A DNA stretch of 63,266 bases, the filler included, from Conidiobolus incongruus B7586 (Eukaryota), in NCBI GenBank assembly GCA_000697335.1. It is 4 parts of 4 records of this genome, joined end to end, with 100 filler letters (N's around TTAATTAATTAA, not from the genome) between each part and the next. Parts side by side here need not be neighbours in the genome. Positions count along the whole stretch, not along the records: positions 27,590 to 42,723 come from JNEM01006068.1; positions 42,824 to 57,532 come from JNEM01006069.1; 2 more parts are not named here. One strand, given 5' to 3'. Below the pieces are notes generated by a model. That model was not told the DNA's origin. It made no database searches and was given only the letters and a program-made list of their open reading frames with translations. The position numbers were made by a program, and so were the translations under genes. Positions 1 through 57,632 of the stretch are shown here, piece by piece; the stretch's first letter is position 1, and each line of letters starts with the position of its first letter.

Positions 1-73
1 ATTTTGTGCTGAATACCACACAAATCTATTAGCAAGAACACTGCTTTTAAGCTTTATCCTGTTTTTTTCTCCT

Positions 74-750
74 ATGTCATCTATTATTAATACTGATAAT
101 AACAATAGAGACTCCCTTAAACCACATTTGATAGAAGCTATACTTAGTTAGTTGAGGCAAGAGGAAAACTATGAATCCTGGTGCTCTAACAAGTTAAACA
201 CTTCTTTTCAAATATGCAGGTTTGTTCTTGTTTTAGAAAGAGTAGATTATATAAAGTTGAGAAAGAAGCTTGATAAAATATTTAATCATGTAAGAACTCT
301 TATTCTCAAATTTAAAACTGCTGAACAAGTTCTAACAAGTAAATAATGTGGTAGAAATGGCCCTTTGTTTACAACAGTTAATACTCTTATAACACAAGAT
401 GATTTAGTTTTTAGAGCTTCTAACATAGCTCCTATAGCTTTTTTATCACACAACTAGTTTCACTATGAGGAACTAGATTACCTAGATGATAAAAAATAAA
501 GTAATAGTAGCTTTCACCTTTCATTGTTTTTTTTAATTAAAAACTTTAGAAACATAAGAAACAATGAAAGAAGAAGAAAAAATACCTAATTTTCCCTTTT
601 TCTTGAGGTTATCAAAAAAAACATACAGGAGCAAAATAAAATTTCAAGATAATAGATTAAGTTACAACAACTACAAAAAAAATGTTATTTATAAATATTA
701 AAACAACAACAATTTTTAATGGAAAAACTCTTATAATTAATATAAAGGAA
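74..750 (+). pseudogene. Probable Harbinger accessory (Myb/SANT-like DNA-binding) ORF, disrupted
   Basis: ATG at 74, frame reads ...IEAILS*LRQEENYESW...KFKTAEQVL...GPLFTTVNTLI. The stop TAG is one G>A from TGG, giving an LxWLxxEENYxxW motif like fungal Harbinger ORF2 proteins. It faces the transposase. 3' end approximate. Confidence 0.55.
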
Positions 751-799
751 CTTTAAAAAAAGTGGTTAGTTTATATGATTTTTATTACAAAACAAAATA

Positions 800-2105
800 T
801 AATCAAAAGAATACATCTAAAATAGTTAACCAAGTGTTAGTTTGTGATAAGATTACTACTTGTAATTTATTTAATTTAGTAAAGTTATTATGTGTGTTGA
901 TTATATCTTGTTTATTGTTGTCAATATTAATATTTTCACCAGTTTCTTTTTCAACTCCTTTTTTTAAATTGTAGTTTTATTCATTAAGAGAAATAAAGTT
1001 GTAAAGGAAAGTAGTTATATATATAAGTGTAACAACAAATTAATAAGCTTTTGTATTTTGTATATAATAAGGTAGTAACTTTAAACAAAAAAAGATAGCT
1101 TTCTAGATATTAAAAGTTCTTTTTTACTACAGATTACTTTTTATTATATACAATATTGAATTTTTCTATTCTTTTCTTTATAGAGAAAAAAATAGCTTCA
1201 ATCTAATTTCTTTAAAATAAAGTAACTATAAACTTATTATTAATATAACCTATAAAAAACAAAAATTAAATAAAAACATTTATTTGTTATTGATAATAAA
1301 TTAACTTAAGTATGAAGCAACTATATTACTTATTATTATTTATAAGAATATATTCTCTTTGTTTAAAGTATTTATTTAACTTATTGAATAATTTAAATGT
1401 TTTTAAAATACTAGAGTTATAATATAATTTAGGTTTCCTAAACTTAAAATATATAAATTTATTTGAAGATAATATAACAACTATATATTAAAGGCTATGT
1501 GTGCTTTTTTTGTTGTAATATAACTAAATATAAAATGTAAGCTAATTTTCAAGTATAATATAACTACCATTTAAATAACCAGTATAGTTATTAAAGGAGA
1601 GTTGTTCTGAATAAGCTTCCTCTATATTATAATGATGTTCTAACCAAACTATTTGATTATCTAGTTTCTCTCTAATAAAACATATTATTCTTTTAGTATA
1701 TAAAATAACAATTCCTTCTCCTATTTAGAACTTTTCTGCTATATCTTTTAAACATGCTTTTTTGTAACCTAGTTAGTAAAGTGTAACTGCTAATTGAGTT
1801 TCTAAAGGTGTATATTTTCCTTGATGAGAAGAAATGAAATTTTTATGTGACTGTAAAATATCAGCAAGTTAGAAAAACTTAGCCTTTAGCATCCTTATCT
1901 ATCTTTTGAAATCATTTTCTTCAGAAGGAAGTTTATGTATAGACTACTATAGCAAGTATAATGTGTATAGCAAGTGTGGAGATATGTATCTTGAGGTTTT
2001 TAGTTCATATAATAATCTTAAAATTGCTGGATCATCTGAGTTCTTATTAAAGTTTACTATAGTAAAAGTAATGAGGAACTCTACTATTTCTTTTGTGTTA
2101 AGCAT
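800..2105 (-). pseudogene. Harbinger/PIF (DDE_Tnp_4, HARBI1-like) transposase pseudogene
   Basis: Manual translation gives motifs in canonical order: FKR*IRM, PLETQLAVTLY*LG, IAEKF*IGEG, IVW, YTGYLNGSYI (CxGxxDG), YYNKKSTHSL, RKPKLYYNS (GxPGSxHDS), EYILIN..GY, FNIVYN, *SVVKKNF (RxxVE) and FLYNF (LHNF). A decayed intron probably lies at ~1250-1332. Confidence 0.85.
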
Positions 2106-2426
2106 AGGAAAAAATAAAACTTGTGAGGTGATTTTAATGAATATTATATATTTTTTAGTTTGAGAAGAGGAAAACTTAGAGTTAATTATCAAAAAAATTC
2201 AGTGAATTTTTTTAGGTCACATTTGAGTACATTTTTAACATTTTTCAGAAAAATCAGAAAAATCAGGAATCAGGACAGATTTGAGTAGGCCCATTATATG
2301 TTTATTAATTGAGTAGGTAAATTATATGATTATTGAATCATTATATGATAAAATGTGGATGATAATGATTTCATAAAATTAATATAGAAACCCTTTAGGA
2401 TATTAACGTCTTGCTTTTTTGCCTTT

Positions 2427-5195
2427 TCATTTGTATGGATTCGGCTTGGAAATTGATTTACTTTCTCCACGGTTTTTGCTACCACTTTTATTATTACCCG
2501 CAATTTGATCATTTCGGCGGTTGCTATCATTACCATTATTGCTACTATCGCCATTACTGATCTCAGATCCATCAGTACCGCCATTGACGTTATCTTCACT
2601 GTTGCTATCTGATCCATCATTACTATGATTGTTATTATCGCTTTTGATATTGTGAGAGCCATTATTGCCGCTGGTGCCATTATCTCCTCCATTAACGCTA
2701 GTATCATTATTATCATTACTCTGATTATCAGTTTCATCATCGTCATCATTGTCATTTCTACCATGACCATCATTGCGAGAACCATGATTGCCTTTGGCAT
2801 TCTTATTATTGGATTCCAATTCAATTTCGGTCTTAATGACTTTCTTACCATGAGTTTTTACATCGATATCAACAACATCGTCTCCTCTTAAAACTTTAGT
2901 ATCCAAATCGACAGCAGCTTTATCTCCATTTTTATTGTTCCCGGTCTCACCATGACCATTGGGTCCATCACTGTCAATGGCATCTTCGACAGTGTCAACC
3001 ACTTCCTCAATAACATCTTTATCTTTACCTTTACCTTTACCTTGAGATTTCTTCGATCTAAGATTTGGACCATGTCCTCCATCTTCTAGAAGATCCAGGT
3101 TGACATTGATATCTTGACTGTCTTTTCCACTTTGATGATGACCTGACCTATCTTTAGCTTGGTCATTTTGATCCTTCAATAAGTCCGAATCGGCAACTTC
3201 ATTGACAGTTTTCTCAACTTTTTTAACAGCATGTTGAACTTCTTTCTCAACTTCTTTCACGACTTCTCCCTGGTTGATACCACTAACCTTATGTTTGGTA
3301 TTTGAGGTCTTATCTTTATTGGAACCACTCAATTCGATACCAACCAATTTTTCATCTTTGTTATCCTTTTTGTTTCCATGATTGCTGTCTTTATCCAGCA
3401 CAGTGAAATCAACATCAATGTCAACTACATCTTTGCTTCCTTTAGATTGATGATTTCCAGCGTGTTGAGGAAGTACGTTAATTTCTACATCAACCGCATC
3501 GTCATCACTCCTACCAGAGCCATGTCCGTTATTTCGAGTTCTGTCAAGGACATTAACATCTAAGCCAACTGCATCATTGCCTCCTTTAGGAGGATGACCT
3601 CCAGAATGTTGAGAAAGCACATCAACACCAACATCGACTACTTCACTGCCTTTCTTTCCGGATTGATTTCTATTAGCGTGAGTCTTGTCGAGGACATTCA
3701 CACCAAGGTCAACTACTTCGCTGCCATCCTTGGGTTTGTGACTTCCACTGCGTTGAGAGAGCAAATTGACATCAGCGCCAACTACGTCATTTCCTTTCTT
3801 TCTAGATTGATTTCCATCAGTATGAGTCTTATCAAGGACATTCACACCAAGATCTACCACATCATCTCCGTCTTTCGATTTCTTGCTTCCATTGTGTTGA
3901 GAGAGTAAATTGACATCAGCGCCAACTACGTCATTTCCTTTCTTTCCAGATTGATTTCCATCATTATGAGTCTTATCAAGGACATTCACACCAAGATCAA
4001 CTACTTCATTGCCGTTCTTCGATTTCTGACTTCCACTGCGTTGAGAGAGTAAATTGACATCAGCACCAACTACGTCATTTCCTTTCTTTCTAGCTTGATT
4101 TCCATCAGTATGAGTCTTATCAAGGACATTCACACCAAGGTCAACTACTTCATCTCCATCCTTCGATTCCTTGCTTCCATTGTGTTGAGAGAGTAAATTG
4201 ACATCAGCACCAACTACGTCATTTCCTTTCTTTCCAGATTGATTTCCATCATTATGAGTCTTATCAAGGACATTCACACCAAGATCAACTACTTCATTGC
4301 CGTTCTTCGATTTCTGACTTCCACTGCGTTGAGAGAGTAAATTGACATCAGCACCAACTACGTCATTTCCTTTCTTTCTAGCTTGATTTCCATCAGTATG
4401 AGTCTTATCAAGGACATTCACACCAAGGTCAACTACTTCATCTCCATCCTTCGATTCCTTGCTTCCATTGTGTTGAGAGAGTAAATTGACATCAGCACCA
4501 ACTACGTCATTTCCTTTCTTTCCAGATTGATTTCCATCATTATGAGTCTTATCAAGGACATTCACACCAAGATCAACTACTTCACTGCCATCCTTGGATT
4601 TCTGACTTCCACTGCGTTGAGAGAGTAAATTGACATCAGCACCAACTACATCATTTCCTTTCTTTCCAGATTGATTTCCATCAGTATGAGTCTTGTCGAG
4701 GACATTCACACCAAGGTCAACTACTTCATCTCCATCCTTCGATTTCTTACTTCCATTGTGTTGAGAGAGTAAATTGACATCAGCACCAACTACGTCATTT
4801 CCTTTCTTTCTAGATTGATTTCCATCATTATGAGCCTTATCAAGGACATTCACACCAAGGCCTACCACATCATCTCCATCCTTCGATTTTCCTGACCCAG
4901 TGTGTTGGGAGAGTATATTAACATCGGTATCAACCACGTCCTTACCTGATTTTGGAGCCGATGCTTCATGACGAGTGTTAAGAATATTAACATCACCATC
5001 GACCACGTTGCTTCCATCTTCTTTCGAAGCAGCGCCCTTCGTTTGATGAGTCTTACTTAGAACCTTCACATCGGCATCTACTACATCGTTATCCTTGGCG
5101 ACCGCTCTCCGAACGATACCACCTATCTCGGAATGAGTAATAGGTTTAGCCATCAGTGACATGATCAAAATGCTAAAAATAGTTGCTGAGCGCAT
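2427..5195 (-). CDS. 922-aa secreted tandem-repeat protein; largest member of the clustered family
   Basis: Long intronless ORF with a hydrophobic signal peptide, IVRR pro-site, ~25 VVDxxVNVL-type motifs and an N/D/G/S-rich tail. No Cys. TATA-like TATATAAAG ~90 bp upstream. Confidence 0.92.
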   Translation of the reverse strand: MRSATIFSILIMSLMAKPITHSEIGGIVRRAVAKDNDVVDADVKVLSKTHQTKGAASKEDGSNVVDGDVNILNTRHEASAPKSGKDVVDTDVNILSQHTGSGKSKDGDDVVGLGVNVLDKAHNDGNQSRKKGNDVVGADVNLLSQHNGSKKSKDGDEVVDLGVNVLDKTHTDGNQSGKKGNDVVGADVNLLSQRSGSQKSKDGSEVVDLGVNVLDKTHNDGNQSGKKGNDVVGADVNLLSQHNGSKESKDGDEVVDLGVNVLDKTHTDGNQARKKGNDVVGADVNLLSQRSGSQKSKNGNEVVDLGVNVLDKTHNDGNQSGKKGNDVVGADVNLLSQHNGSKESKDGDEVVDLGVNVLDKTHTDGNQARKKGNDVVGADVNLLSQRSGSQKSKNGNEVVDLGVNVLDKTHNDGNQSGKKGNDVVGADVNLLSQHNGSKKSKDGDDVVDLGVNVLDKTHTDGNQSRKKGNDVVGADVNLLSQRSGSHKPKDGSEVVDLGVNVLDKTHANRNQSGKKGSEVVDVGVDVLSQHSGGHPPKGGNDAVGLDVNVLDRTRNNGHGSGRSDDDAVDVEINVLPQHAGNHQSKGSKDVVDIDVDFTVLDKDSNHGNKKDNKDEKLVGIELSGSNKDKTSNTKHKVSGINQGEVVKEVEKEVQHAVKKVEKTVNEVADSDLLKDQNDQAKDRSGHHQSGKDSQDINVNLDLLEDGGHGPNLRSKKSQGKGKGKDKDVIEEVVDTVEDAIDSDGPNGHGETGNNKNGDKAAVDLDTKVLRGDDVVDIDVKTHGKKVIKTEIELESNNKNAKGNHGSRNDGHGRNDNDDDDETDNQSNDNNDTSVNGGDNGTSGNNGSHNIKSDNNNHSNDGSDSNSEDNVNGGTDGSEISNGDSSNNGNDSNRRNDQIAGNNKSGSKNRGESKSISKPNPYK
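3650..4950 (-). repeat. Coding tandem repeat: 144-bp (48-aa) unit, 8 near-exact copies, with a 288-bp higher-order period
   Basis: AAATTGACATCAGC recurs at 3763, 3907, 4051, 4195, 4339, 4483, 4627 and 4771. Units alternate between SQHNGS and SQRSGS variants. Confidence 0.95.
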
Positions 5196-25713: not shown

Positions 25714-26391
25714 TTATTTCTTTTTACCTTCCTTTCTTCTAACAACTTCATCACCAATGAAAATACCTTTACCATTGTAAGGTTCGGGTTTCTTCCACTT
25801 GCGTACTTTGGTAGCAAAAGCCATCAATTTTTGCTTATCAATACTTGTCATAATGATCTTAGTAGGGTTAGGAACTTTAACTTGAATACCCTCAGGAATA
25901 GGTTCATTGATAGGATGACTATAACCACATTTGAGACCAATAGTATCTCCTTCGAGCATAGCACGATAACCAACACCACTCATTCTAAGACTGATGGTAA
26001 AACCTTCGGTAACGCCTTCGATACAGTTTGAAATTAAAGCACGGGTAGTACCCCACATAGCTTTTTGGTGCTTAATAGAAGGATCTTCAACAGTCACCTT
26101 AAGTTCATGATTACCAGCCTCCGTTACTTCCTTGACAAAATCGAGTTTGACAAAAGGGACGATGGGAACTCTTTGTTCACCCAAGGGTCCTTTAACAGAA
26201 AGCATTTTAGCTTCACCATATTTCAGGTTATTGGGAGAAATTTCGTCTAATAAAGTGATAGAAACGTCAGAAGGGTAATATAAACTAGCTTTTCCAATAT
26301 GACTGAGTTGAGGAGAAAGGGTAGAAAAACTTCTCAAACAAGTTTGATTAAAAGATTTAGTTAATGTAGTTTTTAATAATGAGGAGATCAT
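25714..26391 (-). CDS. MRPL6: Mitochondrial ribosomal protein uL6m
   Basis: Presequence followed by SHIGK, VKGPLG, MWGTTRALI, GVGYRA and PEPYNGKGI. Confidence 0.96.
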   Translation of the reverse strand: MISSLLKTTLTKSFNQTCLRSFSTLSPQLSHIGKASLYYPSDVSITLLDEISPNNLKYGEAKMLSVKGPLGEQRVPIVPFVKLDFVKEVTEAGNHELKVTVEDPSIKHQKAMWGTTRALISNCIEGVTEGFTISLRMSGVGYRAMLEGDTIGLKCGYSHPINEPIPEGIQVKVPNPTKIIMTSIDKQKLMAFATKVRKWKKPEPYNGKGIFIGDEVVRRKEGKKK

Positions 26392-27489
26392 CTTAAAGTC
26401 TATATATTAAAAAAATAAATAAATAAAATATTGTTGGATTTAGATTAATTAATAAAAATTAAAATATTCCAAATATTATTATAATTTTATAATTTAGAAA
26501 TTTATGATTTTATGTTTTGATTAGTTTAGTTTAATTTAATTTTTTTATTTGTTATAATAAAAATTAATTTCCTATTTATCAAATATTTAATTTTGTTTAT
26601 GGGATTAATCTGAATTCTGAATAGTCCCATAAAAATATTATTTTATCATTTTATTAAAAACACCTATCTGGTCACAAAATGTATATATACACATCATTGA
26701 TTAAATTAAAATGGAAAATCAATTAATATAGACCAAATATTAAAATGAGATATTAATTTATATCATTTAGATCTAAATTAATATTTAACAAACGAACTCA
26801 TTCGATTAATAAAAGCATTTTAAATTTTTATATAAATTAGATTATTATTCAAAAATTTAAAAATAATTCAAATAATAATAAAGGTTTTTAAATTTAAATC
26901 TTTTATTAATTAATTAAATTAGATAATAATTGCAATATATTTAGTTTTATTAGCACTTTTTAGTGGTGTAGACTGAACAATAGCTGCTTATTTAATGATT
27001 CTAAAGTTAACTAAATAATTATAAAAAATCATTTTAAAAATAAAATTTATTAATTATTATTAGTATAAAAATTAAATAATAAGAAAATTTTAAAATCTAA
27101 ATTAAATATAGTTATTAATACATGAATTATTAAATTAATACACATGATAAAGTTAATACTCTGTTTTATTATTATTAACCCTTTACTATATTTTTAACAA
27201 GCTTCTAATCTTTAAAAAATAATGTTTTTTATTTAAAACTGAAATTAGGCATTTTACAAATTAATAAAATTTATTTATTGGAATTTTTTTAAAAATATAT
27301 TTTTTTATTATATAAAACAATTATAGTTATATAAATTTTAATCTTATGAATATATTACAAAGTAACTTTTTTTGAATTTTTTATATAGAAAATTTTTTAT
27401 AATTTTTAGCTTAATTTATTTTATAATTATTATTTAAAATTATAATTATTTATAATTTATAATAATAATATCAATTAAAAATTATTTTT

Positions 27490-27589
27490 NNNNNNNNNNN
27501 NNNNNNNNNNNNNNNNNNNNNNNNNNNNNNNNNTTAATTAATTAANNNNNNNNNNNNNNNNNNNNNNNNNNNNNNNNNNNNNNNNNNNN
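27490..27589. other. Assembly gap spacer N44-TTAATTAATTAA-N44
   Basis: The same 100-bp spacer with six-frame stops occurs three times; artificial. Confidence 0.97.
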
Positions 27590-37600: not shown

Positions 37601-37943
37601 ATCTAGAGATAAAAATTCATCTACTCTATTATTTAAGTAAAAAATTTTTTTTAATTCAAAATTAATTAATTAGAAAATTATTAAATTCTTAGAAAAAAAA
37701 TTAGTTAGTTTAAATTTAAATTTTGTGTAATAAAAATGTTAAAAAATAATTTAAAATTATTAATCATTATTTATTAAAAAATCATATGACATATTATATG
37801 AAAAAGTTTATATTCTAAAGAACATTAATTTCGGTTCAATAACTATATAAATAAATTATTCATTTACAAAATATCGCTAAACACTTATTTATTTATTATT
37901 TATTTTTTAAAATAATATACTTATTTTTAATTTTTTAAAAATA

Positions 37944-41387: not shown

Positions 41388-41429
41388 TTTAATATCAACC
41401 TAATAATCCAATATTGGTTACAATTAATA

Positions 41430-42723
41430 TTACTTTGTAATTTAAATAATGGGAATTTTTTGTGATTGAAAAAAAAATAAACATTTTAATATATAAAAAG
41501 TAAAAATAAATATATAATATAAAATTAATAATTTCCTTTATTTCTAATAACTTTTTGCTATATTTTTAGCAAAGATCTAACACTTAAAAAACAATTCTTT
41601 TTATTAAAGACTGAAATTTGATGTTTTACAAACCAATTAAATTTTCCTGTAGAAATTTTCTTTCCTACAAGCTGGTTTTTTAATTGCTTAAAACAATTAT
41701 AATCACATAGGTTATAATCTAAAGAATATACTAGATGTGGTAGTTTTTTCTAGTTATTTTTAATTAGAAAGTTTTTTATAACTTTAAATTTATGTATTTT
41801 ATAATTATCATGTAAAATAATAGGTTTTCTTAAATTATATTAAGAATACTAATTAGAAATAGTTTTATTTAAAAAAAATATAAAGTTTACTATTAATAAA
41901 TTTTCTTTTAAGAATTAAATAAGAATAATATATGTTATTATAATTTATTATTACAATTAATATTTGTTTATTAATAAAGTGTTTATTTAAAGGAATTTAT
42001 AGAGGGGGTTGATTTAATTTAATTTAACACTTTGATTTATATTTTAATAAAAGATTATATAAAAAAATCTAAGATTTATTAATTATAATAATTTATTATA
42101 AAAGTTTTAGTTTCTAGTTATATCTTAGTAAGTTTTATTTAACAATAGTTACTCTAATTTTTTTTAAGTTTTAGTTAAATTATAAGGTACCTATTTTATA
42201 TTTTTATTAATTAATTTTAATTTAAACTTTAATATATATATAAAATACTTATGTAACTAATATTAAAATGTTTTAATAATTCTTTAACTAAAATAAAAAG
42301 GTATTTTTCAATATAATTTTTTACTTTATTAATAATTAAAAAAGTAATAATTGAAATTAGTTTTTTAAATTTTAACAAGATTTAAATAATTTCTTTTTTA
42401 ATTTTAAAATAATTTACCTAGTAATAAATTATTGATTTAAATAATATTTTATTATTAAAAGTTGTTTGTAAATTTTAAATAATTTTAAAAGGCTTATGGT
42501 TAAATTTTATTAATATTAAAATAAAAAACTTTTGATGATTATTATTTAGTTTAAATATAATTAAATTAAACAACTAATTTTAAAAAGAATTTTTTAAACA
42601 AAAAAATTATAATATATTATATATATATATATATATATTCTTATTAACTTTGTATATATTTATTTATTTCAAACTAATAATATATTTGAAAAATCAGAAA
42701 TTAAAAAATTTCCCATTATTTTA
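41430..42723 (-). mobile_element. Near full-length (~1.3 kb) mariner element, heavily C>T/G>A mutated
   Basis: Aligns with 56878-57532. Begins TA|TTACTTTGTAATTTAAATAATGGGAA. The inverted match TTCCCATTATTT at ~42710-42721 is cut by the gap. No intact ORF. Confidence 0.9.
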
Positions 42724-42823
42724 NNNNNNNNNNNNNNNNNNNNNNNNNNNNNNNNNNNNNNNNNNNNTTAATTAATTAANNNNNNNNNNNNNNNNNNNNN
42801 NNNNNNNNNNNNNNNNNNNNNNN
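42724..42823. other. Assembly gap spacer
   Basis: N44-TTAATTAATTAA-N44. Confidence 0.97.
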
Positions 42824-43618
42824 TTTCGACATATCTTTAATAATAGCATAGGTGTGTTCCTTCATACTGGTTAATAAGCCATCGGCACAGGTTTTGGGAT
42901 CAACCATAGGGATTAATTTTCCTTCTTGCAAGGATCTATAACAGTCATCAGCGCCCTTAGGTTCTCCTGCGAACACTGGTATGGGTTTTTCAGGATTGAT
43001 TCCTTTAGCGGAAATACAGGTTCCTGATAATAAACCACCACCACCGACTGGAGCAATGACGGCATCTAACTCATATCCCATCTCTCTAGCTTGTTCTTCC
43101 AATTCCAACATAGCAGTACCTTGGCCAGTGATGATATTAGGGTTATTATAAGGATGTACGAAAATAGCGCCAGTTTTTTTGATAACCTCTTCAACAGTAG
43201 TTTCTCTAGCTTCCTGACTAGGGAAACATTCGGTAATAATACCATCATATCCTTTGACAGCATCCTTCTTAACTTGTGGAGCGTTACTAGGCATAATAAT
43301 ATAAGCTGGGATGCCCTTTTCTTTAGCAGCAAGAGCTAAAGCTTGAGCGTGATTTCCACTTGAGTGAGTGATAACACCTCTCTTTTTCAATTCCTCAATA
43401 CCTAGTTCGTCTTCCAACTTCTTCAAAGTATACGAAGCTCCACGAAATTTAAAAGCTCCAACTTTTTGAAAGTTTTCACATTTGAACAAAATCTTCAAAC
43501 CTGCTAACTTGTTCAAACTCTCACAAGTCAAAACAGGAGTGCGATGAACCACCTGGCTTAAGTATTTAGCAGCTTCTCTAATATTTTCAATATTGGTACA
43601 GTAAGTATCTTGAGTCAT
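42824..43618 (-). CDS. PLP-dependent serine racemase / Ser-Thr dehydratase family enzyme (SRY1-like), 3' end lost in the gap
   Basis: KCENFQKVGAFKFRGA (PLP lysine), HSSGNHAQALA, PVGGGGL and ADGL motifs. Confidence 0.92.
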
Positions 43619-44539
43619 TAGTGTTATTAATTAATGAAATAAAGTTGATACATTTTTAATTTTGGATTTGGATGTATTTATATTTAAAAGATGCATAATG
43701 GTTAAATTTTTCAAATCCATATGATCCAATACAAGTTTATTTTAGGGAATTGGGTACTTAATTAGCCTAAACTTGGGATCATTTGACTCGTGATTATCTC
43801 TTTTAAACTTGCAACCAAGGCCAGCTTGTTCATCTGGATTTATCTTTCTTATTCTATTTCATTCTATTTTAAAGACCAAACAAGATCAATGAATTTTAAA
43901 AATCCAAATATGATTATTTGATCAGGAGTACTAGAAAATTATTAAAATCAATTGAAAAAAAATAATATATTTTGTATATGCTTATTCAATAATAATTGAG
44001 CACAGATATATATTAGATTTATTTTCATTATCAATTATCGGTATATTAAAATACGAAATAATTTTTCGAGATTGATAATCTGATTTTAAATATTTATTCA
44101 GCATCATTTTTTGATTATTTCAATGTTTATTTGTACTAAAAAATGTCATAGAAATGATTGAGGAATGAAAAAATTGAAAATAACTTACATTGATTAATAG
44201 TTGATAACATTTTTTAAATAATGTTGTATTAAAAATGAAATTAAAAATATTGAAAATTAATACATATTTACTACGTAAAAATATAGTGATGATTTTGTAT
44301 TGATTATAGAAAAACTATTGTGATATAATCGATAAGGAGGAAAATGGATTAAAAATATGATAAAATAGTTCATAATGAGATAAGTAAATTTGATATATAA
44401 CAAGCTATTAAACTAGGTATTTTAATGGAAATTAAATATCATATGTTGTTTATAAGAAGTTCAAAAAATTAATTATAAATGTAAAATATTTTTAGTACAT
44501 TTATCAAATTTATAAAGAGTATAATTGGCCATTGTACAA

Positions 44540-44611
44540 GGCTTCATGGTCTAGTGGTATGATTCCCGCTTTGGGTGCGGGAGGTCACGGGTTCAATTCC
44601 CGTTGGAGCCC
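44540..44611 (+). tRNA. tRNA-Pro (UGG), intronless
   Basis: Acceptor stem GGCTTCA/TGGAGCC, A-box TGGTCTAGTGG, anticodon arm CCCGC-TTTGGGT-GCGGG, T-loop GGTTCAATTCC; 72 nt. Confidence 0.97.
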
Positions 44612-45932
44612 TCTTGGACTGGTGCGAGTTTTTGACAAATTTTTAAACTATTTGTAATTCTAGTTAATGAGCATTGTTTTGATTATATTGTTACAAAGTC
44701 TAAATATCAATAATTCTTTAAAATTAATCAACATTGAGGATATTTATATCATAATCTAATTATAATAAATTTTATGATCGCAAATGTGTTTTTTGATGAT
44801 AAAGCACTATGTCAAAATAATGATGATTTCAATAATCATATTTTGTTGAGTTTGATCAAAGAGTTGAACAAAAATTACATTTCAAACTAATCCATTAATG
44901 AAAATGAATAATAATTCAAATAAATATTTTCAGACATCTTTTTTGTAGGTAAAAATAATTTTTTATTCAATAACTTAATTATTAAGGATTTATTATCAAT
45001 TAAATATAGGTTAAGCTTTGTCAAATGATATTACTAATAAGTGAAAAGTGATATTAATGTATTAATTTGACACAGGAATACTCTTTAAATATATACAAAT
45101 ATAATAATATCTGAATGAACAATATTTTAGCCTATTATGCTTACCCCAAGAATATGATGTAGTGAAATAATTATATAAAATAAAAATTCTATATTTCATA
45201 TAAATAGATAGAATTATTTAAAATTATTACTTTAACAGTTTAAATCAATTTTATATCATTTTTTTGAAATTATAAAGGATTTTGATTGTATAACTGCAAA
45301 AATTTTATTTGTTTTTACTTTGATTTACTCAGTAACATAAAAAAATTTTAGTCCACAAAGAAAATGTTCGAATATTCTAATAAGTGAAAAATCTAGGATT
45401 TATAAAATTCATAAATATAATAAATAGAGATTTATTTTTTAATTTATCAGACCAAAATCAAATTGTAAAAAAATAGTTAACAAAACCTTTTACTCACTGA
45501 TATATGAGGTAATTCAGTTATTTAAAAATTATTTAACATTTTTTGAGTCATTATTCTACTACCAAGTAATTAAATATTAATATCTATTAAAATGAATTTG
45601 TTAAATTATAAACATAAATGATTACTTTTAAAATTTGAAAATTTCTCAAATTTAATTATATAATAAAATAATATTTAAATTATTTTAAATTTATATTATA
45701 TGATAAATCGTATTAATACTGATTATATTAATTAAATATTTAATATATTAATTAAATTTCATTTTTCATATAATCATAATATAGATGATAGAGTATATAA
45801 ATTTAGAGATAATAAAATCAATAAAACTAGAATAATAGTTTTTATTATTAATATATCTGTTTATAATAATCATCTATATAAAAAAGGCAACCAGCTAAAT
45901 TGTCGCACGGATCATCGTATATATAATATAAT

Positions 45933-46838
45933 CTATTGAATGGGAAGATTAGGAGACTTGGTAGATTTTATACCAACACTCTCAATAGAGTCCCAACCGC
46001 CAGGAATGATAGAGGGTAATTTTTTGAAGAGGGTTTCGATATTGTCGATTAATTCGGATTCGGTAGATTCAGAATTACCAACCTTGTAGCTGACATTGGT
46101 TCCTGTGGGGTGGTAGACAGGGCAGGTCTTGATAGCTTTGTCGATCTTTTCACCCAACTTGCCAGTTAATTTGACAGGGATAGGTAATCTGTAATACGAT
46201 TAATATAATTAATATAATTTGTATGATTAAATATAATCTAGTTGATTACTTTTTAGATTCAAAGAATTTCTTGCCCAAATAAGTGGGTAATAGAGGAATT
46301 AACTTTTCTTCACATAAAAATATATCATAACGATTCTTTAATTGTCTCTTTAATTCGTAGGATTTGTAACTGGATTTCAAATTGTCAAAGCCAATAACCT
46401 ATTTCATATACTATTTAATAATTATATCAAATATACTACTATTTTAAATTTACCTCATTGATTGATTTAATATTCTCATTTTCTAAACGCTCTTCAATAT
46501 TAGCTTTATCTTTGACAATTAAACAAACTGTAGAGTCTTCAGGTAAGATTAAATGGGGTAAAGGACTAAAAAACAGATTAAATTAGTAACCATATATATT
46601 ATAAAATTAGTGAATAATAACATACACAAAAGTGGGAGCTTTAGGTTTTACGTTAATTTTATTTAAAGTTAAATTAATTAGAATGATCTGATTTTCACTT
46701 AATAAGTTATTATCGTCTTCTTTCTTTTCTTTGAGATAGGTGACTAATGCTTTGATAGCTTTTTTAGTCTATTAAATATATGTTATTATATTAATATTGC
46801 TATTTGATATTATATATTACTTGTTTGATATCTAGCAT
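45933..46838 (-). CDS. Ribosomal L1-domain nucleolar protein (RSL1D1/Utp30/Cic1 family), 5 exons
   Basis: Exons 46838-46821, 46768-46626, 46565-46454, 46398-46250 and 46188-45933 join in frame through GT-AG introns. Motifs PLPH, VCLIVKD, YKSYELKRQL..YDIFL, LGKKFF..KKLPIPV and SPNLPI. Confidence 0.9.
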
Positions 46839-47051
46839 TTTTTAGTATGATTATTAAAATATAATGATAATTAATTCGAACTTTTTTGTCAACATCTTTA
46901 TAGATTGAATTAGAGTAATGAAATATGTATTTTGAAATTGTGGGATTACGAATTTATTTAATCTCAAATTGAAAAATTTATGAAGCCTCATATCAATAGA
47001 TAGAATGACTGGAAAATTGGTTGAATATTCAATATTTATTTGAATATAATT

Positions 47052-48569
47052 TTAATTTGTAATCATTGATTTTATGTGTTTTTTAATTTGGGTTAAATGT
47101 AAATAGTTCGTATCCCATCCCACTTCCTTTAACTTTTCGTAAAAGCATTCAAATTCCTCAAGATCTAACTCCAAGTTGGATGATTGATTTGATGAATTTT
47201 GAGAAAGTTTATAATTGATCCAAGCTGCGTGGAAGTAACCTTGAAGTATGTGACAGTTGGATGGGGTGTCAATGTACCATAAATAAATTTTGTTGTTCTT
47301 GAGATGAACTAGGTAGTGATCATGGTTTTGGAGAGATTGCTGTAATTTTTCAACTAATTTGGTATCGGTAAAGATAAATTCATTAAGATTAGGATTGATT
47401 ATGATGGGGTGTTTGAATTTAGTTTTAAAGGGGAAGACGAAAGTTTCGGTTTGAGAGACTTGTTTTGGCGTGAGTAATTTGAGAGTATGGTTAAATGGTT
47501 GATGCGTATTGATAGGATGTTGCTTTTCGAAATAGTGACTAAGAATAATTTCAATTCTTTGGGGATTTAAATTCTTGGTGATTACAGCATTGTTGGAGAG
47601 ATAGGTCCAGTGCAGCGACAGATAGCAGAAGGGTATAAACGCTACCAATACTTTAATCAGCTCCCCTCCAGTTAATGATGACACTCCAATACCGATTGCA
47701 GTCCCGATGACTGAAGCAGCAGTAATTTGAGAGCCAGATTTACCAGTAATATCACCCAAACTAAAGCAAATTAAATTAGTGTCACATTGCCAATAGAGCG
47801 ATTCAATCATTATTACTTGTTGTGCAAAGCAAAACTCTGATTCATAGGAGCCCTCGTCGCAGAGTTAGCCAACCATGAAATATTTTTAAATATGTTAGAA
47901 ACTGAAGCAAGGGGAAGAAATAGGTGAGGTACGAGTGGCGAGAACACCTCCATCAAGTAAGAAACTTGCATCACTATAGAGCTAATAAATCGATGGCGCT
48001 TCGGCTCACTGTCGAATCGACCTCCCATTCGACTGGCATAGACTACACCTCCGAGCTGACCAAGTCCGTCTTTAATAATCCAATTTAGAGCAGCAGCCAT
48101 CTAAATACTGATTAAAATTATATTCACTTTAAAAAACATAAAAAATATTGGTTACGGGTATGGCTCCATTGCCCAAACCCACAGCGAATAACAAACTCTG
48201 CATTGAGAGGACACCAGTTACAGTACCCGCTACATTGGACAAAAATTGATACTTTGTAAATGGCCAATACCCTGAAGCTACAGAGTTTGGAAAGTCTTTT
48301 GGTAAAAAAGTAGTAACAAATCTGGATTGAAAATCATTTTTTAAGGTGTACCACCGATTTGTAATTGTCACATTTTTCAATTTGTTTTCTTTTTGTATTC
48401 GATTTACTTGTAAGTCATTACTTGTGTCAATTTCAAGTTGATTCAAATGATTTATGAAAAATTTCTTTGAAGTTTGTTCAATAACGATTTTAGTAGTATT
48501 ATGATGCAGTCTCGTTTGAACATAGTATATATTAACGGGTTTAATGGAATTATTTATTATATTTATCAT
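47052..48569 (-). CDS. RUS1/C16orf58 (DUF647) family protein, 3 exons
   Basis: Exons 48569 (or 48623)-48156, 48100-47817 and 47760-47052. Motifs FLPKDFPNSV, LLFAVGLG, AAALNWIIKDGLGQLG, FDSEPK and NLGDITGK. Confidence 0.92.
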
Positions 48570-51500
48570 TTTAATTGATTTATATAATTGAGAAAGAGTT
48601 ATGATTTCACAATTTGATCTCATTGATTAAATCTTATTGATGATAGAATGACATTTGAATTTTTGCATATGAAACATGATATCAACTTAAATTTTAGTTT
48701 AATATCAATGTATTTTGTAAATTAATTGAAATGATGCTAATATAATACTGTACAATCTAAATTATCTATTTATATAAGTTGAGTAAAATTTGGTAGTTAA
48801 ATTTAATCAACTATAACTTTAAATTAATAGAATCATAATTTTTGAATTAATCTCTTGATTATTGTATCTTTCATCTTGTTTATCTAGTAGTTCATGAGAA
48901 ATTATTAGATTTATTATTTGTGAATATTTCATATTTTTTGTTGAAATAATATATATAATTTTTTCTATAGCATTTGAATGATTTTCAAACAAATATTATT
49001 CATATGTAGTAACTTTCATAATAGATATTATCAAATGAATACTTTTGAATAAAATGGAGTATAGTAATATCAATGAATATTATGAATGTAAAAATCTTTT
49101 TATGGTTGTATTTCTCAATTTGCAAAAGATATTTACTGAAATATGAGTAGTTTTTCGCTGAGATTATTATAAATTATAGGTACGTATTGGAATAAATTAC
49201 AATAACAGTTCATTTAAATTTACCCTAAATGAATAACAATTACAACTTTGATATATGACAATGCTAAAAATTACAAGCCACTTATCCAAATATTATAAAT
49301 TTAGGACATTATAATTAATATTAGAATTTGAATTTTTTTGAACAGTAATTTTTTTAATTGATGTTAATAGGAACATATGATGAGTAATATATTTGTAGTA
49401 TTGACAAATTTAGAGTATTATGAAATACGATTAATACAAGATAATATATATATATTATAAGGAAGAGCATAAATTAGTGGAATAAACAGTTAGAAAACAT
49501 TATTTCTAGTATTTGAGTAAATATAAAGTTACCAAATAATCAAATGAAATTATTTAATATTAGAAAATATTGAAATATAAATTGATTCTATATATATCTA
49601 ATATAAAAAAAGAATATGAAATTTAATATAAATTTTTTATATTAATAATTATAGTAATACTGATAAAGTAAATCTTTTAGTTGATACAAAATTCCAGAGC
49701 TATTACAAAGCTTGAATATTTGATTTAAAAGAAAAAATTGAACTACACCATGTAATTTAAACATTTGATAATCACAAAAGTTTTTTTTGATATATATTAA
49801 AAATAGAAAACATATTACAATTTATTAATTTTATTATTACCTATCAAACTAAACTATTGATTTTACACTATCAAAAATTTGATTTTTATTTGATTTGGAT
49901 TTGATTAAACTCAGAAAATCAAAAAATTGACATTAAATTTAAATGTTACTTTATTAAACTTAAAATATATTCAAAAACCAATCTATATTAAATATTATTA
50001 AAGCAACAAAAGATGTTTTCATATAATTGATTTTATTCATATATTGAAAAGTGATTAATATTAAAAGGAATACAATGACTAAATTTACATAAATATATCT
50101 AATTGATACTAAAATGAATAGATTAATTCCTAAAGGACATTATTCCAGTATCTATCATTAGAAAATAATAAAAGATCCTTGTTTATTTGAAATGAATCCA
50201 TTTCTGCTTAAATTGATCTTCATATTTCTTTGACTGTTGATTTTTTTCTTCAGACATCTTGTTAATTAACTGATAATTTGTTTCAGTTATAGTTTATTAT
50301 TCAAAATGCATATGAGTTATTCTATAATTACTATAGTTTATTAACAAATAATAACAATATATTAAATATATATTGATAATAATCGTAGTTTAAGCTTTCA
50401 GTCATATTGCAATATTTTCAGAACATTTAATCTTATCTCACATTTAACATTCAACATATTTGATTATTATTATAAATATCTTAGCCTCTTAAACTTGAGA
50501 CATTAAGCAAAACATCTACAGTCTATTAATAAAGCAAAAACTCTTGAAATATTGAATATAATTGATAATTGATAATAGAGTTGTAAAAACACTAACAAAT
50601 GTGGAATTGGTTGTCAAATAGTTCTCCATCTATCAAAAGATGTGTAGAAAACCAGTTTTCCTTCTCATCCTTTAGGATAATACATTACTATGTATCCTTG
50701 TTGGGTTGTATTAATTTTGATTTGCACACCCTTTATGTTATCATTAATGTCAATACTGTGATTTATTTCTATAATTTAACAACAATTATAGTGTTTCGTT
50801 TGATGAATAATTTCAGGGAACATTATTCCTTTCAATCAGAGCCCTAGGTCAACTTATATTTATTTGACCTTGACACATTTTGGTTTAAAATATTCAATCA
50901 CTTAATATCAAAATATTTACCAAAAATCAAAAATCAAATGCCAAAATATTTTGAATTTTAAAAATGATTGTATATAATAAACTATAAAATATAATAAATA
51001 TTTTAACAATTTAAATAGAACTGAAAAATATTGCAATATTTTAAGTTAAAGAAACTTAATTTTTCAAATGCATGATTCAAGTTTTTTCATAAATTCATGT
51101 TACAACTGTGATCAGCCAGCCACTCTATTAAATTATGTCATATATTTTCGTAACTATCCCGCTGTATTTACCCACACTTAGCTTCACAATAGTATTACTA
51201 TGCTGACACCCACATGGATTTTGTAACAATAAAAGCCTTCATAACTTTTGTATATAATATATTGATATAAACTTCAATAAACAAGACATCTTTCATACTC
51301 ATCTATATCAATAAGCTCGTCCTTTCGCTTATCTCGCTTTACCTACGATCACAAAAGCACATATTTTATTCAAACTTATCCTGTTTTACTTTCACAACTA
51401 ATAACTACATTATGATATAATAAGATTCACTTTACTATATATTCAGAAGTTTTTCAACAAATTACTAGTAATTTCAAGATCAGCATATCCCATAACAAAT

Positions 51501-52492
51501 ATAGGTAGAATAAAAATATAGACAAGTCACTTTAATTAATAATAAAAATAATAATTATATTGACAATGGACAATACCAAATTAATTCAGCAAAAAATTGA
51601 ATATTTAAACCAGTTTAACGGTTTTGACGCTATAATAAGTAAATGGGTAGTCATTATTTCATATAATAATCCAGCTATATATTAATATTTATTAATTTAG
51701 ATTACTTTAATCTATTCTAAAAGTAATGGAGATTGTGAATTTGAATTTCAAGTTAAAAATATTCATACAGTAATAAATATTATATAAATGAGTCGTATAA
51801 TTGAATGTTAATATAGTTGATCTTTAGGATAACAAAGGATTTTTAAGCAATTCAATTCTTAGCTCCTTAATTGATTATATTGGATCTATATCCATTTTAT
51901 CCTATCCTCCAAAGTTATTAACTGTAACTTCTGATCTCAATATGACTTTTTTTTCAAAAGCTAAAATAGGAGACAATATAATTATAGTAAATATATAATT
52001 TTATTTGATTCTAGCATTATGCTTATACCATATATTCTAAAAGATCGGGAATACTATTGAAGGGAATAAATTGGCTAATTTTGCAGAAGTTAAATTAGTT
52101 ATTTCAGGCACGAAGCAATTGATTGCTAAAGGATCAATCACTAAAATAGCTATCACTGGAAAACTTTGATCCTATCCTATACTCCAATTGAATTTATTTA
52201 CGATTAATAAATGTAAAATGTACTTTATTAAATAATCAAATCAGATTTCTTCATTTTTAATTAGTTTGATACTACATTTATAAAAATATTAGATAAACTT
52301 GATAAAATACAATAGGATATAATAATATATTATATTAATTGAATTTACAAAATTGAGACTGGCTCAAAAGGTTTATTAAAAATTAAATTTGATTAAAATT
52401 ATATTATTAGTGTATGATAATATATTAAATTTTTTAAAATGGAGGTTGATGAAGGTATATATATAAATATACTAAATAAATTTACAATATTT

Positions 52493-54590
52493 TTAAAGGA
52501 ACCCTTGGAGATCGCTAGGGAGATAGGATACCAGTTTGTCCAATTGACTTTGAAGTTGAACGACGCAGCTTGATGAACTGTTAGAGCTGGGATGAGAATG
52601 ATAAGGCGACTTTTTAATCTCATCCAAGCGCTCTTTAAGCTTCATGATCACATCAACGATTTCAATTTCTTGTTTTTTTTGTACCCAGCCAGATACATCG
52701 ACAGTACACAAGTGTTGGACATAGCGAAGCTTCAGTTGGAGCTCGGAAGACTCAAGAGTCTGATGAAGCCAGGTAGCAAAATTACCAGATCTCAAGAATT
52801 GCTTGTACAATTCAATGTTCCAGTCCGATTTAGATGACCCGAGAGTTTTACTGTGGCTAGTTAAAGATTTGAGGAAATCGTCGGGTTTAAATGGCTTCAT
52901 AATAGGCATTGGACCGTTCAAAGTCCATTGGGTGTGACTGGGGAAAAGAGTGGTCATGTAGCGATTTAAAGGCAGTAAGAATTTTTGTGTTAACTCTCCA
53001 AAGTAGCGTCTGAGTCTGTTGTTTAAGACTGTAGCAGATCGATCACCCTGAAGGAGAGCTGATGTTAAATTGCGAATTGTGGTAGAATCGTGAATAAGAC
53101 AAGATTTTCTAGAAGTGTAAATACCTTGCTTCAATCCTCCATTGGGTGTGGTACAGCGGGAGGTAGTATTGAAAGCAGCAAATGGATTAGAGTGATTGAC
53201 ACGATGACGATGGCGTTTAGATCCGTTAGCGACGGCAGGTTGACCAGTGCCAACTTGAATCCAATGAGGCCAATGAGCCAAAGCATCAGAAAAATGAGGA
53301 TTGGTTACTCCAATAATGGTATTGGGTGGCACTCGGTTTTTTGATGCAAAGCTCTTAAAATCTGGATCTTGAATAGTAACATATGGTCTAAAATCCCCGC
53401 AGTAAGGAATAGGTTTAATGAGATCTAAAAGCTCAGTAATCACTTGAGAACAAGTGGATGGATCCGGACCCATAACTACCAAAGGTTCTCCTAGTAACAT
53501 AAGCTCCCAGATAGACCAAAGTTCTTCAAGTTTGTCCCACCAGTGGAAAAGCAATCCAGGTGATCCAATATCGGGCACAGATGCCATAATAGGAATATCC
53601 ATTTCAACTTGACCGCTAATCTCACTGGAGTTTGTTGTCAATTGGCTTGTTTCCAATAATTGAAGAGTTGGCTTATTAGAGTCAGGCATTTCAACTCTTA
53701 AGACTTTCCCAGATAAGGGAAGTTCAAGATTTTTAGCGAATACAGGATTGGGCCATTGAGCGATATTTCTTAATACTGAGTCGAGATAAATGTCAGCAGT
53801 GCGATTAGGAGTATTGGCATCAGTTTGTTTATAATCCAATTCAAAATACTTAGAACCAACGGTTCTAACAACCGATGTGAATAGTCCGACTGTTGTAGAG
53901 AAAGGAAGTGGTGTAATCAAAACCAATGATTTCTATTAATTTTTAGCGTTAAAAAACGAGAAAAATAGATAAAAATCAGAGCTATGTATTTACCTGATAA
54001 TAACCTCTCCTAATTCTGGAATCTTTCTTTTGTTTGAAATAAGTATATGCATAATAAAATCCATCTGTCTTGACTTGGTTAGAGCTACTAGAGTGTCTAA
54101 TACGGAACTGATAAACCATATCGCCACTTTCAAAAACTCGAGTATCTGGAAAAGCGGAAAAACAAATATTTTTCTCCTCACTCTCGCTAAAGGGGAAAGG
54201 TGGATAAATTTTATCGATAGCTTGACCTGTCTCTAAGTCAAAGCGAACTACACAAAATGCAAAACACCAACGGTGTAAACTCTTTAATTGCTCTGGAGTG
54301 AATTCTAAATTGGAGAAATAATCCTCCTTTTCAAATTCTAACGGTGTTGTTGCGGGACTGGATTGAGCAGATGCATAATCAGAAGAACTCAAACTATCCG
54401 AGTCCTGGCTATCTTGAGAGTCATTTGTGTAAATATTTAATGGTGAGCATGGCATAGAGGTGATATTATGAATAGTAGAGCTGGTGATATCAATATCAAT
54501 TTGACTTTTGGCTTTAATGCGACTATCTTTTATCCCAGTAAAACTTGAATTATTTCGAAATAAAGGCATGGTAGTGGTAGTAGTTGTCAT
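52493..54590 (-). CDS. DENND6/FAM116-like DENN-domain Rab GEF, 2 exons
   Basis: The intron 53993-53933 joins RRGYYQ|KSLVLI. Motifs FDLETGQ, AFPD, WELMLLGEPL, DFRPYVTIQD and GVTNPHF. Confidence 0.9.
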
Positions 54591-56877
54591 ATTTTTACAA
54601 AATTATTAATATATTTTGGGTAGAAGTATTTAACAAAGTAAATAATTTGTTTGTAACGTTTTAAAGAATATAAGCAACTCTAATAAAAATACAGTAATAT
54701 AAACTAGCTGGAAATTCCCTGCTAAAGTTGCTCAATACGGCTTAAGAATATAAAACAATATTGGTGGAAGTTTATAATACAATGACAGATTAGATATAGT
54801 GATATATTTTCGCTTAATTTACAGTTAAACTATATTTCGAGACTCTCTTGCTATTTATATCAATTTATTTATTATCCCTTTAATATTCTTGATCACAATA
54901 TATGTCACTCACAAATTGACTTCAGCCAGTTTTGTAATACCTCATTTTATAGGTTCATTGATTTGGATATTAATTTTACCCAAATCAGTGTAACTCCCCT
55001 TCTCTCAAAAAATTAAATCAAATCTCTCTAATATTTGATTGGCCAGCTGCAAGTTTGAAGGGTTGTAATTGGACCGCATTATCATAGATAGTGCGGGCTT
55101 TCTGTTTTACGCTTATTGGCTAATTCATCTAAAGTAAAAACAATTAACCCAACAGTGTTTAGCTAAACTGATAATAATTCAAGTTTAATCTACCACCGCC
55201 AATCCTGTAAATGATGAAAAAAAATACAAATTCAACTATTATTTTATCAGAGATATTGCACAAATTCACCAATTTTTTGCCAGTTTTGATATTAAGCTCA
55301 GTTGTAGAATTAAAATTTTTTTGAAAATATGAGAAAAAGACTCTAATCATCTGATCTATCTAAACTTCAACCAATCATTAGTTAATATGGACCAATTTAA
55401 ACAGAACTATTCGATTTCAAATAAATTCTCATTAATTTGTTACATTTAGGTTATTATGGCTATCATTATCAACTTCAACACCGCAGTCTTAAAATCCATC
55501 TATTTTCTCCATATATTTATCTATTATCTAATCATTTAACAATCAACTCGCCTCTCAAACCGTATTATGAGGATTTTTAGTCAATTTAATCACCCTAATT
55601 GCATATCAAATTAAACATGATCAATTTCATAAATATTCAATCATTTGGAACAACAGCATATATAAATCATAATATAAACAAGCATGGAATTATATTAATA
55701 TGAAATATAATTAAATAGTAATAATTTGTTAATATTTACTTTTTTACCCTATTATTTACTATGATATATTTAATTTATTATTTAATCTTTGAAATTTTAC
55801 AATATATTGAATTCTCTTAATTTGATTATTTAAGTTATAAATATCTATTCAAATATACATAAATATACAATACTATGTCTTTTTGATTCTATATTCACAT
55901 CACAATATTTGTTGATTTTATATTAAATTTTCTTTCGAATATTATAAACATCACAATTATTAACATTTAGCCGAATTTTTAGTAATTAATTAGAAAGAGT
56001 TATAAAGAAAAATAATGTATTAACCCGAACTAAAATATCATCCAAATATATGACAATATATAGTATAAGGTCATTTTATTTGTAATATTAACCATATTTA
56101 CTCATAAATATTCATCAATCAATCTTCATCATACTTATATTTTTAAAGCTAATGTCTGCAAACTAGAAAATCAAATGACAAAGATATTTCAATATTTCTG
56201 GTAATCTAATGACCTTTAAATAAGGACAGCTATTAATTAAATCCATATAAATAAGGATTTGAAATTATTAGAAATTATTCTTAAATTGACGAGATGATTA
56301 TGCAATATGTTATAAAAATAAATACTCTTTTTCAATTGACAAAATACATGAAATGTACATATATATATATATGTATATTCATCAATTTTCCTCGTGATGA
56401 TTATAATATTCAACATTAGTTAAAAATTAATAATTATTTTATGTTTAATCGAAACAAAAAAATTATGCTCAACTATGAAATATTGATCCAAATATAAATA
56501 TTCTAATATATTAAGATCTCAAGTTATAACTCAATAAATGGGAATAGATATTGTTTGTATTTTTTCAGTATAAAGTGATAAATTGATTATCAAAGCACAA
56601 AATCATTTTATTTCAAAAACATTGCAATATAGTTTTAAGAAATATACCATATTTACAATTAATCAACTGTTTTAAATTTATTAAATATATTTCACTTATT
56701 TAATTATTTGTTTAGACATTCTACCGTCATTGTAACTTAAGAGATTAAAATTTATTTATATTAGTATATATACTTCTATAAGATTTTGTTGATATATGTA
56801 TATTAAATTATTAAATTATTAGATTTCTGTTTATTGTTCTAGTATAAATAACTAATAAAATACTCTATATTATACTA

Positions 56878-57532
56878 TTACTTTGTAATTTAAATAATGG
56901 GAATTTTTTGCGATTGAAAAAAAATAAACATTTTAATATATACAAAGTAAAAATAAATATATAATATAAAATTAATAATTTCCTTTATTTCTAATAACTT
57001 TTTGCCATACTTTTGGCAAAGATCTAACACCTAAAAAACAGTTCTTTTTATTAAGGACTGAAATTTGATGTTTCACAAACCAATTAAATTTTCCTGCAGA
57101 AATTTTCTTTCCTGCAAGCTGGTTTTTTAATTGCCTAAAACAATTATAATCACATGGGTTATAATCTGGGGAATATACTAGATGTGGTAGTTCTTTCCAG
57201 TTATTTTTAATTAGAAAGTTTTTTACAACTTTAGATTTATGTATTTTACAATTATCATGCAAAATAATAGGTCTTCTCAAATTATATTGAGAATACCAAT
57301 TAGAAATAGTTTTATTTAAAAAAAAATATAAAGTTTATTATTAATGGATTTTCCTTTAGGAACTAAATAAGAATAGCATATGCCATTATAATCTATTGCT
57401 ACAATTAACATTCACTTATCAATAAAGTGTTTATTTAAAGGAATTTGTGGAGGGGGTTGATTTGGTTTAATCCAACACCTTGATTTATGTTTTGGCAAAG
57501 GATTATACAAAGGAATCCAAGATTCATCAATT
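56878..57532 (-). mobile_element. Mariner (DD34D) element, 3' half, truncated by the gap; transposase pseudogene
   Basis: IDESW ... K*MLIVAIDYNG ... HDNCKIH ... YSPDYNPCDY, with 34 residues between the 2nd and 3rd Asp. TA target precedes the TIR. One CGA>TGA stop and one homopolymer frameshift. Confidence 0.93.
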
Positions 57533-57632
57533 NNNNNNNNNNNNNNNNNNNNNNNNNNNNNNNNNNNNNNNNNNNNTTAATTAATTAANNNNNNNNNNNN
57601 NNNNNNNNNNNNNNNNNNNNNNNNNNNNNNNN
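57533..57632. other. Assembly gap spacer
   Basis: N44-TTAATTAATTAA-N44. Confidence 0.97.

Follow-up and report, generated by a model that had tools for sequence, protein, structure and literature searches.

Features of the window and its mariner copies

The stretch analysed here, called the window throughout (63,266 nucleotides including filler), comes from the fungus Conidiobolus incongruus B7586 (assembly GCA_000697335.1) and contains two copies of a mariner transposon, A and B, of which A carries dense, one-directional C>T and G>A substitution. The window consists of four contigs with 100-bp artificial spacers between them (27490-27589, 42724-42823 and 57533-57632), each built as N44-TTAATTAATTAA-N44, where TTAATTAATTAA is a 12-letter motif with stops in all frames. 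Because the spacers are artificial, adjacency across them is no real evidence, and because A and B lie on different contigs, neither a spacing of 15 kb nor linkage can be taken as established for them. The contigs 3' of the second and third spacers begin within genes (a PALP enzyme and NSUN2). Coordinates of the main features are collected in Table 1.

Table 1. Positions of the transposon relics, control sequences and marker gene in the window.
Feature	Position	Strand	Basis or use
Mariner copy A, ~1.3 kb, nearly complete, heavy C>T/G>A	41430..42723	-	alignment, inverted repeats
Mariner copy B, 3' half, element cut by contig end	56878..57532	-	alignment, DDE_3 match
Older mariner relic, more distant relation	27052..27489	-	~70% to A and B, GC 9.8%, CpG = 0
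Probable PIF/Harbinger-like relic	1..2293	-	weak DDE_Tnp_4 match, E=0.1, under cut-off
Mitochondrial ribosomal protein L6 (RPL6) gene	25714..26391	-	taxonomy marker
Two intact amidohydrolase/beta-propeller paralogues, 86% identical, 3.5 kb	31202-34657, 37911-41387	+	control
Two secreted-protein paralogues, 95% identical, 590 bp, 2.7 kb apart	16660-17247, 19356-19948	+	control
Coding tandem array, 144/288-bp period	3405..4947	-	control
Apparently secreted protein cluster	2427-5237, 9176-9820, 11024-11461, 14913-15749, 16718-17371, 19419-20024		

Judged by their sequences, A and B are both DD34D mariner elements and both are dead. Each starts just 3' of a TA, at 41430 and 56878, as the original prediction had placed them, and each shows this TA together with one full left end. 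In copy A, the TA target site lies at 41428-41429 and the inverted-repeat arms (41444-41461 and 42704-42721) match at 94%; comparison with the left arm suggests that the contig end cuts the right repeat ~13 bp before its tip. In copy B, the TA lies at 56876-56877, and the loose ends of the family break off at 56876. The transposase remnant of B (56972-57531) retains the DESW, HDN and YSPDYNPCD motifs, with 34 residues by hand count from the D of HDN to the D of PCD, and matches Pfam DDE_3 at E=9e-6, which is below the curated cut-off. Its lesions are one TGA stop and, within a run of A, one 1-bp frameshift, while A has 7 stops in the half of the transposase frame that aligns.

A HMMER search of 1.84 billion proteins returned 2289 relatives of the copy B transposase, which carry Transposase_1 and HTH_48 domains. 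The best are only 37-44% identical and so cannot be used to polarise DNA changes; among 10 relatives checked, 2 carry names, both pseudoscorpion. A word-based search for homologues of the transposase fragment gave 0 of 23 candidates, and a metagenome scan for the transposase gave 0 of 88 stretches. The elements thus resemble known DD34D mariners in length, TA target, short inverted ends, motifs and D34D spacing, and differ in the distance to their nearest proteins and in being dead in both copies. Family-wide data come from Logan contigs matched to copy B, in runs X3 and X1 of one sample, which is probably the window's source. These contigs reveal a high-copy family, with 63 and 71 contigs in the two runs leaving the left end into unlike flanks. 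Contigs from runs X5 and X7, of another organism, number 0 and 1 on copy B, which is no proof of absence.

The host was predicted to be a non-Dikarya fungus, and the RPL6 gene agrees. Its product is 90% identical to that of Conidiobolus coronatus (KXN73333.1) and 48-58% identical to four other named zygomycete rows of the alignment. The two group at 100/100 in a 21-row tree of one gene, with rows chosen from homologue hits. NCBI taxonomy places Conidiobolus under Entomophthorales, outside Dikarya. On this single-gene evidence, which resolves the genus only, the host is Conidiobolus. A metagenome scan with RPL6 yielded 3 distant loci in 147 stretches, which were left unused.

Spectrum and direction of the substitutions

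Copies A and B align over 657 columns with 2 gaps (41429-42084 against 56877-57532) and differ by 62 substitutions. In A, 34 are C>T and 25 are G>A; another 2 are transitions at which B has the T or A, and the last is a transversion, at which B carries the family's minority letter among the Logan contigs. The first reading by eye, of about 60 substitutions with a single non-transition and nearly all changes being C>T or G>A in the 41.4-kb copy, is borne out. The polarity of 59:2 (binomial p=1.6e-15) leaves 59 of 157 C:G sites (38%) turned to T:A in copy A. Where A has changed, intact relatives share the residues of B (IDESW against INKS-stop, YSPD against YSLD); A is therefore the derived copy, and B, on this residue comparison, is close to the ancestral state.

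After correction, the C:G>T:A distance reaches 0.47 per site, with transversions at no more than 0.0085 per site (upper 95% limit), giving a ratio of at least 56 and a point estimate of 310. For fully methylated human CpG, the corresponding ratio is about 30. Hits fall equally on synonymous (11/28) and non-synonymous sites (47/117, p=1.0), which points to damage after insertion and without selection. Both strands are mutated without strand runs (29 runs, 24.8 expected). One ancestral CpG, at 41965-41966 and 57413-57414, now reads TG in A, where B has CA, as had been noticed earlier, and yields the TGA stop in B. Other copies of the family show the same direction: in run X3, 99 of 132 variable places are C>T (52) or G>A (47), and in run X1, 94 of 130 (48 and 46), with 16 transversion places in each run.

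Sequence context and position of the substitutions

The mutated cytosines have a distinct context. By 3' base, the A/B pair shows hits at 32/64 CpA, 18/52 CpT, 8/38 CpC and 1/2 CpG; by 5' base, hits occur at 23/38 cytosines after C, 11/24 after G, 14/48 after T and 11/46 after A. A logistic model that includes position gives odds ratios of 5.9 for 5' C (p=3e-4) and 3.3 for 5' G, with CpA and CpT not separated (p=0.33). All 8 CpC hits fall among the 23 sites where the 3' C is also mutated, and none among the 15 where it is not (p=0.013). CpC was therefore probably mutated only after becoming CpT, and this dependence on a mutated neighbour points to successive rounds. In the family-wide data, where 40 of the 136 variable-place rows are shown, 19 rows are C>T or G>A; 13 of these are CpA, none is CpC, and in 14 the preceding base is C or G (p=0.016, 0.005 and 0.003). 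The resulting signature, [C/G]-C*-[A>T], is a distinct one. A Dcm-like CCWGG target was considered and rejected, as the +2 base lends it no support.

CpG is gone or nearly so from the relics: A has none, B has 1, and 1-2407 has 0 where 32.5 would be expected. Only 2 CpG cytosines are left in B, so the CpG mutation rate is unmeasurable from the A/B pair. The original prediction of a broad context holds for CpA and CpT, which dominate with 50 of 59 hits, and overstates the rest, since CpC is not mutated on its own. Its argument that CpG decay alone is insufficient stands, with 50 CpA or CpT hits set against 1 transversion.

Hits also increase along the pair, from 1/16 C:G sites through 14/53 and 12/34 to 32/54 (Spearman p=5e-6). 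The inward rise in density that had been described, from 2 substitutions in the first 125 bp to 33 in the innermost 180 bp, is thus real in this pair, but the visible family-wide rows do not reproduce it: the shares at their 19 sites show no inward increase (rho -0.43, p=0.065), in pre-selected rows behind an 80% filter that drops heavily mutated interiors. The gradient in copy A looks one-sided. Its GC content is 15% in 41429-42084 and ~10% in 42085-42723, up to the right end, with CpG = 0 throughout, and the N-terminal halves of relatives are not clearly poorer in GC-rich residues. Shielding at the boundary with the neighbouring gene possibly fits the gradient as well as an edge effect does.

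Confinement to transposons

Duplicated host sequences in the same window do not share this spectrum; the mutation is confined to transposons. The amidohydrolase pair differs by 154 against 161 transitions in the two directions and by 164 transversions. One of its genes ends 42 bp from mariner A and has no T/A excess, with 20 against 26 in the last bin. The secreted-protein pair has 7 against 10 transitions and 6 transversions, and retains 11 and 14 CpGs. The coding tandem array contains a perfect 375-bp direct repeat (3922-4296 = 4210-4584) and 37 CpGs, with balanced transitions and 53 transversions among 159 differences. Across the three duplicated host sequences, the transversion share is 26-34%. 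Transitions make up 61/62 differences in the mariner pair, compared with 17/23, 315/479 and 80/103 in control duplicates (Fisher p=1.3e-3, 1.7e-9 and 1.4e-4). Unique intergenic DNA retains CpG at observed/expected ratios of 0.4-0.97.

Two findings would have changed the picture drawn at the outset: an ascomycete host with ordinary repeat-induced point mutation (RIP), or the same bias in unique DNA. The host is instead a Conidiobolus, and neither its unique DNA nor its gene duplicates share the bias. It is scarcely conceivable that an assembly error, library damage or a genome-wide AT bias in an old copy produced the pattern: the genome is AT-rich, the assembly fragmented and copy A unchecked against reads, yet control duplicates are balanced and contain transversions, other family copies in two runs repeat the direction and context, and unique intergenic DNA keeps its CpG.

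A candidate mechanism and its alternatives

With moderate confidence, we propose that a DIM-2-type methylase mutates transposon chromatin, with additional DNMT1-type CpG loss and without RID. Silenced transposon chromatin, not DNA-DNA pairing, would mark the target. A candidate DIM-2-type cytosine methyltransferase would then convert non-CpG cytosines to thymines, iterated over repeated rounds, while CpG loss would follow from DNMT1-type methylation; the process may be mitotic. For C. coronatus, PMC10538959 gives DNMT1 as KXN74494, with no entry (ND) in the Neurospora RID column and none in the DNMT5 column. Its supplements group KXN73869, whose PPCQ motif is intact, with the Dim-2 clade (99.9/97), and a putative orthologue of this enzyme could be the mutator in the present host. 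In supplement file 1 of that paper (rows 71/73), KXN73869 is entered under Coemansia, whereas the tree and alignment label it Conidiobolus, so the entry is apparently a row slip.

Several points weigh against this proposal. The PMC10538959 table scores Dim2 as absent in C. coronatus, and motif VI of KXN73869 reads EQV, not ENV, which leaves its activity unproven. Dim2 of Zymoseptoria tritici mutates >98% CpA and spares CpG (PMC8016269), while CpT hits and CpG loss are seen here. The relic at 1-2293 is not CpT-poor (observed/expected 1.37), and the family-wide bias, with 16/132 transversion places in run X3, is weaker than that in the A/B pair. The context derives from one pair and the 19 visible rows of one sample, and surviving gene duplicates, which serve as controls, have been filtered by selection.

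Passive decay is an unlikely but serious competitor. Dense CpG and non-CpG methylation would here be followed by slow, spontaneous deamination of 5-methylcytosine, without any mutator, and the order CpG > CpA > CpT > CpC could just reflect how strongly each context is methylated. The many transversions (63/136) of the older relic at 27052-27489 fit such ageing. Copy A is harder to explain in this way, because 0.47 changes per non-CpG site accompany a single transversion over all 657 columns, and because the ratio, at least 56, lies above that of fully methylated CpG. Phycomyces transposons do bear CG and CHH methylation (H being A, C or T; PMC11258239), whereas the authors of the Z. tritici study reject spontaneous deamination as the source of a similar excess (PMC8016269).

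Genuine RIP beyond Dikarya is a less probable explanation, and we regard it as doubtful. It would involve homology recognition at the zygospore stage and a burst of mutation by an enzyme that does not depend on RID, comparable to the DIM-5/DIM-2 branch in Neurospora. DIM-2 is able to mediate RIP without RID (bioRxiv 10.1101/115501), and index-based RIP reaches 24.2% in Z. radicans (PMC11105155). The near-pure C:G>T:A change on both strands with CpA foremost, the lower density towards the left edge of the element, and a composite RIP index that is positive in just 4 of 64 1-kb bins, 3 of them on relics, all agree with it. Neurospora RIP, however, has thresholds of ~400 bp and 80%, values cited in PMC6572847, and the 95% identical 590-bp pair, the 86% identical 3.5-kb pair and the perfect 375-bp repeat are all unmutated, with selection on genes as a caveat. 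DIM-2-dependent RIP in Neurospora also spreads into flanks (bioRxiv 10.1101/115501), which does not occur here. Strand-clustered runs are absent, and copy B is nearly intact despite the high copy number of its family. The sparing of linked duplicates above these thresholds and the lack of spreading argue against homology-triggered RIP. The first suggestion of a defence with a distinct signature is supported by [C/G]-C*-[A>T], and nothing shows homology-triggered sexual RIP.

It is very improbable that a cytidine deaminase, or a repair defect limited to silenced chromatin, acts in place of a methylase. The CC* preference is reminiscent of APOBEC3G. Here, 5' C is the strongest context term, and + strand cytosines are mutated more often than - strand cytosines (position-adjusted odds ratio 0.31, p=0.006). 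Against this, both strands are mutated without clustering, and the total CpG loss across relics points to methylation; no deaminase was seen, although no search aimed at one was made.

Relation to known systems

A close likeness to the proposed DIM-2-type process is Dim2 of Z. tritici, whose mitotic mutations of methylated repeats are >95% C>T (PMC8016269). Both cases combine almost pure C>T change, confinement to transposons and a lead of CpA. In Z. tritici, a DIM-2-clade enzyme is demonstrated and no sexual cycle is needed, while the enzyme in Conidiobolus is a candidate. In Conidiobolus, mutation extends to CpT, prefers cytosines that follow C or G, and goes with the erasure of CpG, so the restriction to CpA with CpG spared is not found. 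Z. tritici has RID, and none is listed for the sister species C. coronatus.

RIP of Neurospora and other Pezizomycotina shares the near-exclusive C:G>T:A change on both strands, the highest hit share at CpA (here not separated from CpT in the model), AT-rich relics and stops from Trp and Gln codons, and signatures of CpA plus CpT are described for Botrytis, Sclerotinia and Magnaporthe (PMC4352252). Unlike RIP, the process in Conidiobolus spares linked duplicates and the tandem array, leaves flanks untouched, shows no homology trigger, and occurs in a non-Dikarya genus for which RID is unlisted. CpG-biased decay in DNMT1-bearing Microbotryum and rusts (PMC4352252) is likewise confined to repeats and involves CpG loss, whereas 50 of the 59 hits here lie at CpA or CpT.

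The idea is not wholly new, as index-based RIP in Z. radicans and mitotic C>T mutation by Dim2 in Zymoseptoria precede it. Stajich et al. 2024 (PMC11105155) suggested RIP in Entomophthorales, with major caveats. That work deals with the same order and proposes RIP-like activity beyond Dikarya and RID-like methyltransferase architectures; it uses dinucleotide indices only (24.2% in Z. radicans, 2.4% in E. muscae), with no figure for Conidiobolus in the passages covered, where the present analysis adds an aligned, polarised spectrum with context and internal controls. A 2025 kingdom-wide screen (PMC12543289) limits RIP-like defence to ascomycetes and scores C. coronatus as no_rip. We found no alignment-based report of such a spectrum in Conidiobolus in the literature covered. 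The best reading is a transposon-confined, non-CpG C>T hypermutation whose outcome is RIP-like and which is most fittingly classed as a variant of the DIM-2-type mutagenesis of repeats.

In this lineage, with a culturable Conidiobolus, transposons thus undergo strong C>T mutagenesis outside CpG. With a candidate enzyme named, it becomes testable whether DIM-2-clade enzymes can act as sole mutators and whether RIP derives from such activity. The sparse RIP-index bins suggest that, where a genome is AT-rich, screens based on indices or k-mers can overlook such mutagenesis. A bolder version, which we put forward tentatively and consider rather unlikely, is that Conidiobolus has an active, RID-independent transposon mutator, marked by a distinct [C/G]-C*-[A/T] signature, in the form of a deep-branching Dim-2-clade enzyme. 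The EQV motif of KXN73869 is intermediate between ordinary DNMTs (ENV) and RID (QT/ET). If this version were true, enzymatic repeat mutation would be older than Dikarya and RIP would have arisen from it.

Other relics and neighbouring genes

Evidence for generality beyond mariner rests on the composition of one relic, at 1-2293. Its - strand holds a transposase-like frame and its + strand another, broken one, and it ends at ~2293 in a GGGCC-type tip, a trait of the PIF/Harbinger family; a homologue search with the relic returned 0 of 1076 candidates. The relic has 0 CpG among 539 cytosines and is CpA-poor, with CpA:CpT odds of 0.52 relative to pooled intergenic DNA (p=3.5e-11). The older mariner relic differs from copy B by 59 against 14 polar transitions, in addition to its 63 transversions. 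The contig start at 27590-28800 is AT-rich, CpG-poor, CpA-poor and CC-rich, with surviving cytosines profiled as in mariner A, and is probably another relic. Between the secreted-protein paralogues, a 1.36-kb tract (17791-19149) has 0 CpG against 13 expected with CpA not depleted, and perhaps reflects CpG-only decay as a layer separate from the non-CpG process.

The amidohydrolase paralogues are tandem, intronless genes of 1150 amino acids that combine a PD40 beta-propeller with an amidohydrolase, an architecture we take to resemble bacterial ones. Their four-fold sites are T or C in 448 of 478 cases, and horizontal transfer is possible. Some six proteins that are small or rich in repeats, and apparently secreted, cluster at 2427-19948, with D/V-rich repeats and Y/G/D tails. 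No credible Pfam family was found for this cluster, which possibly represents a lineage-specific family of spore or wall proteins.

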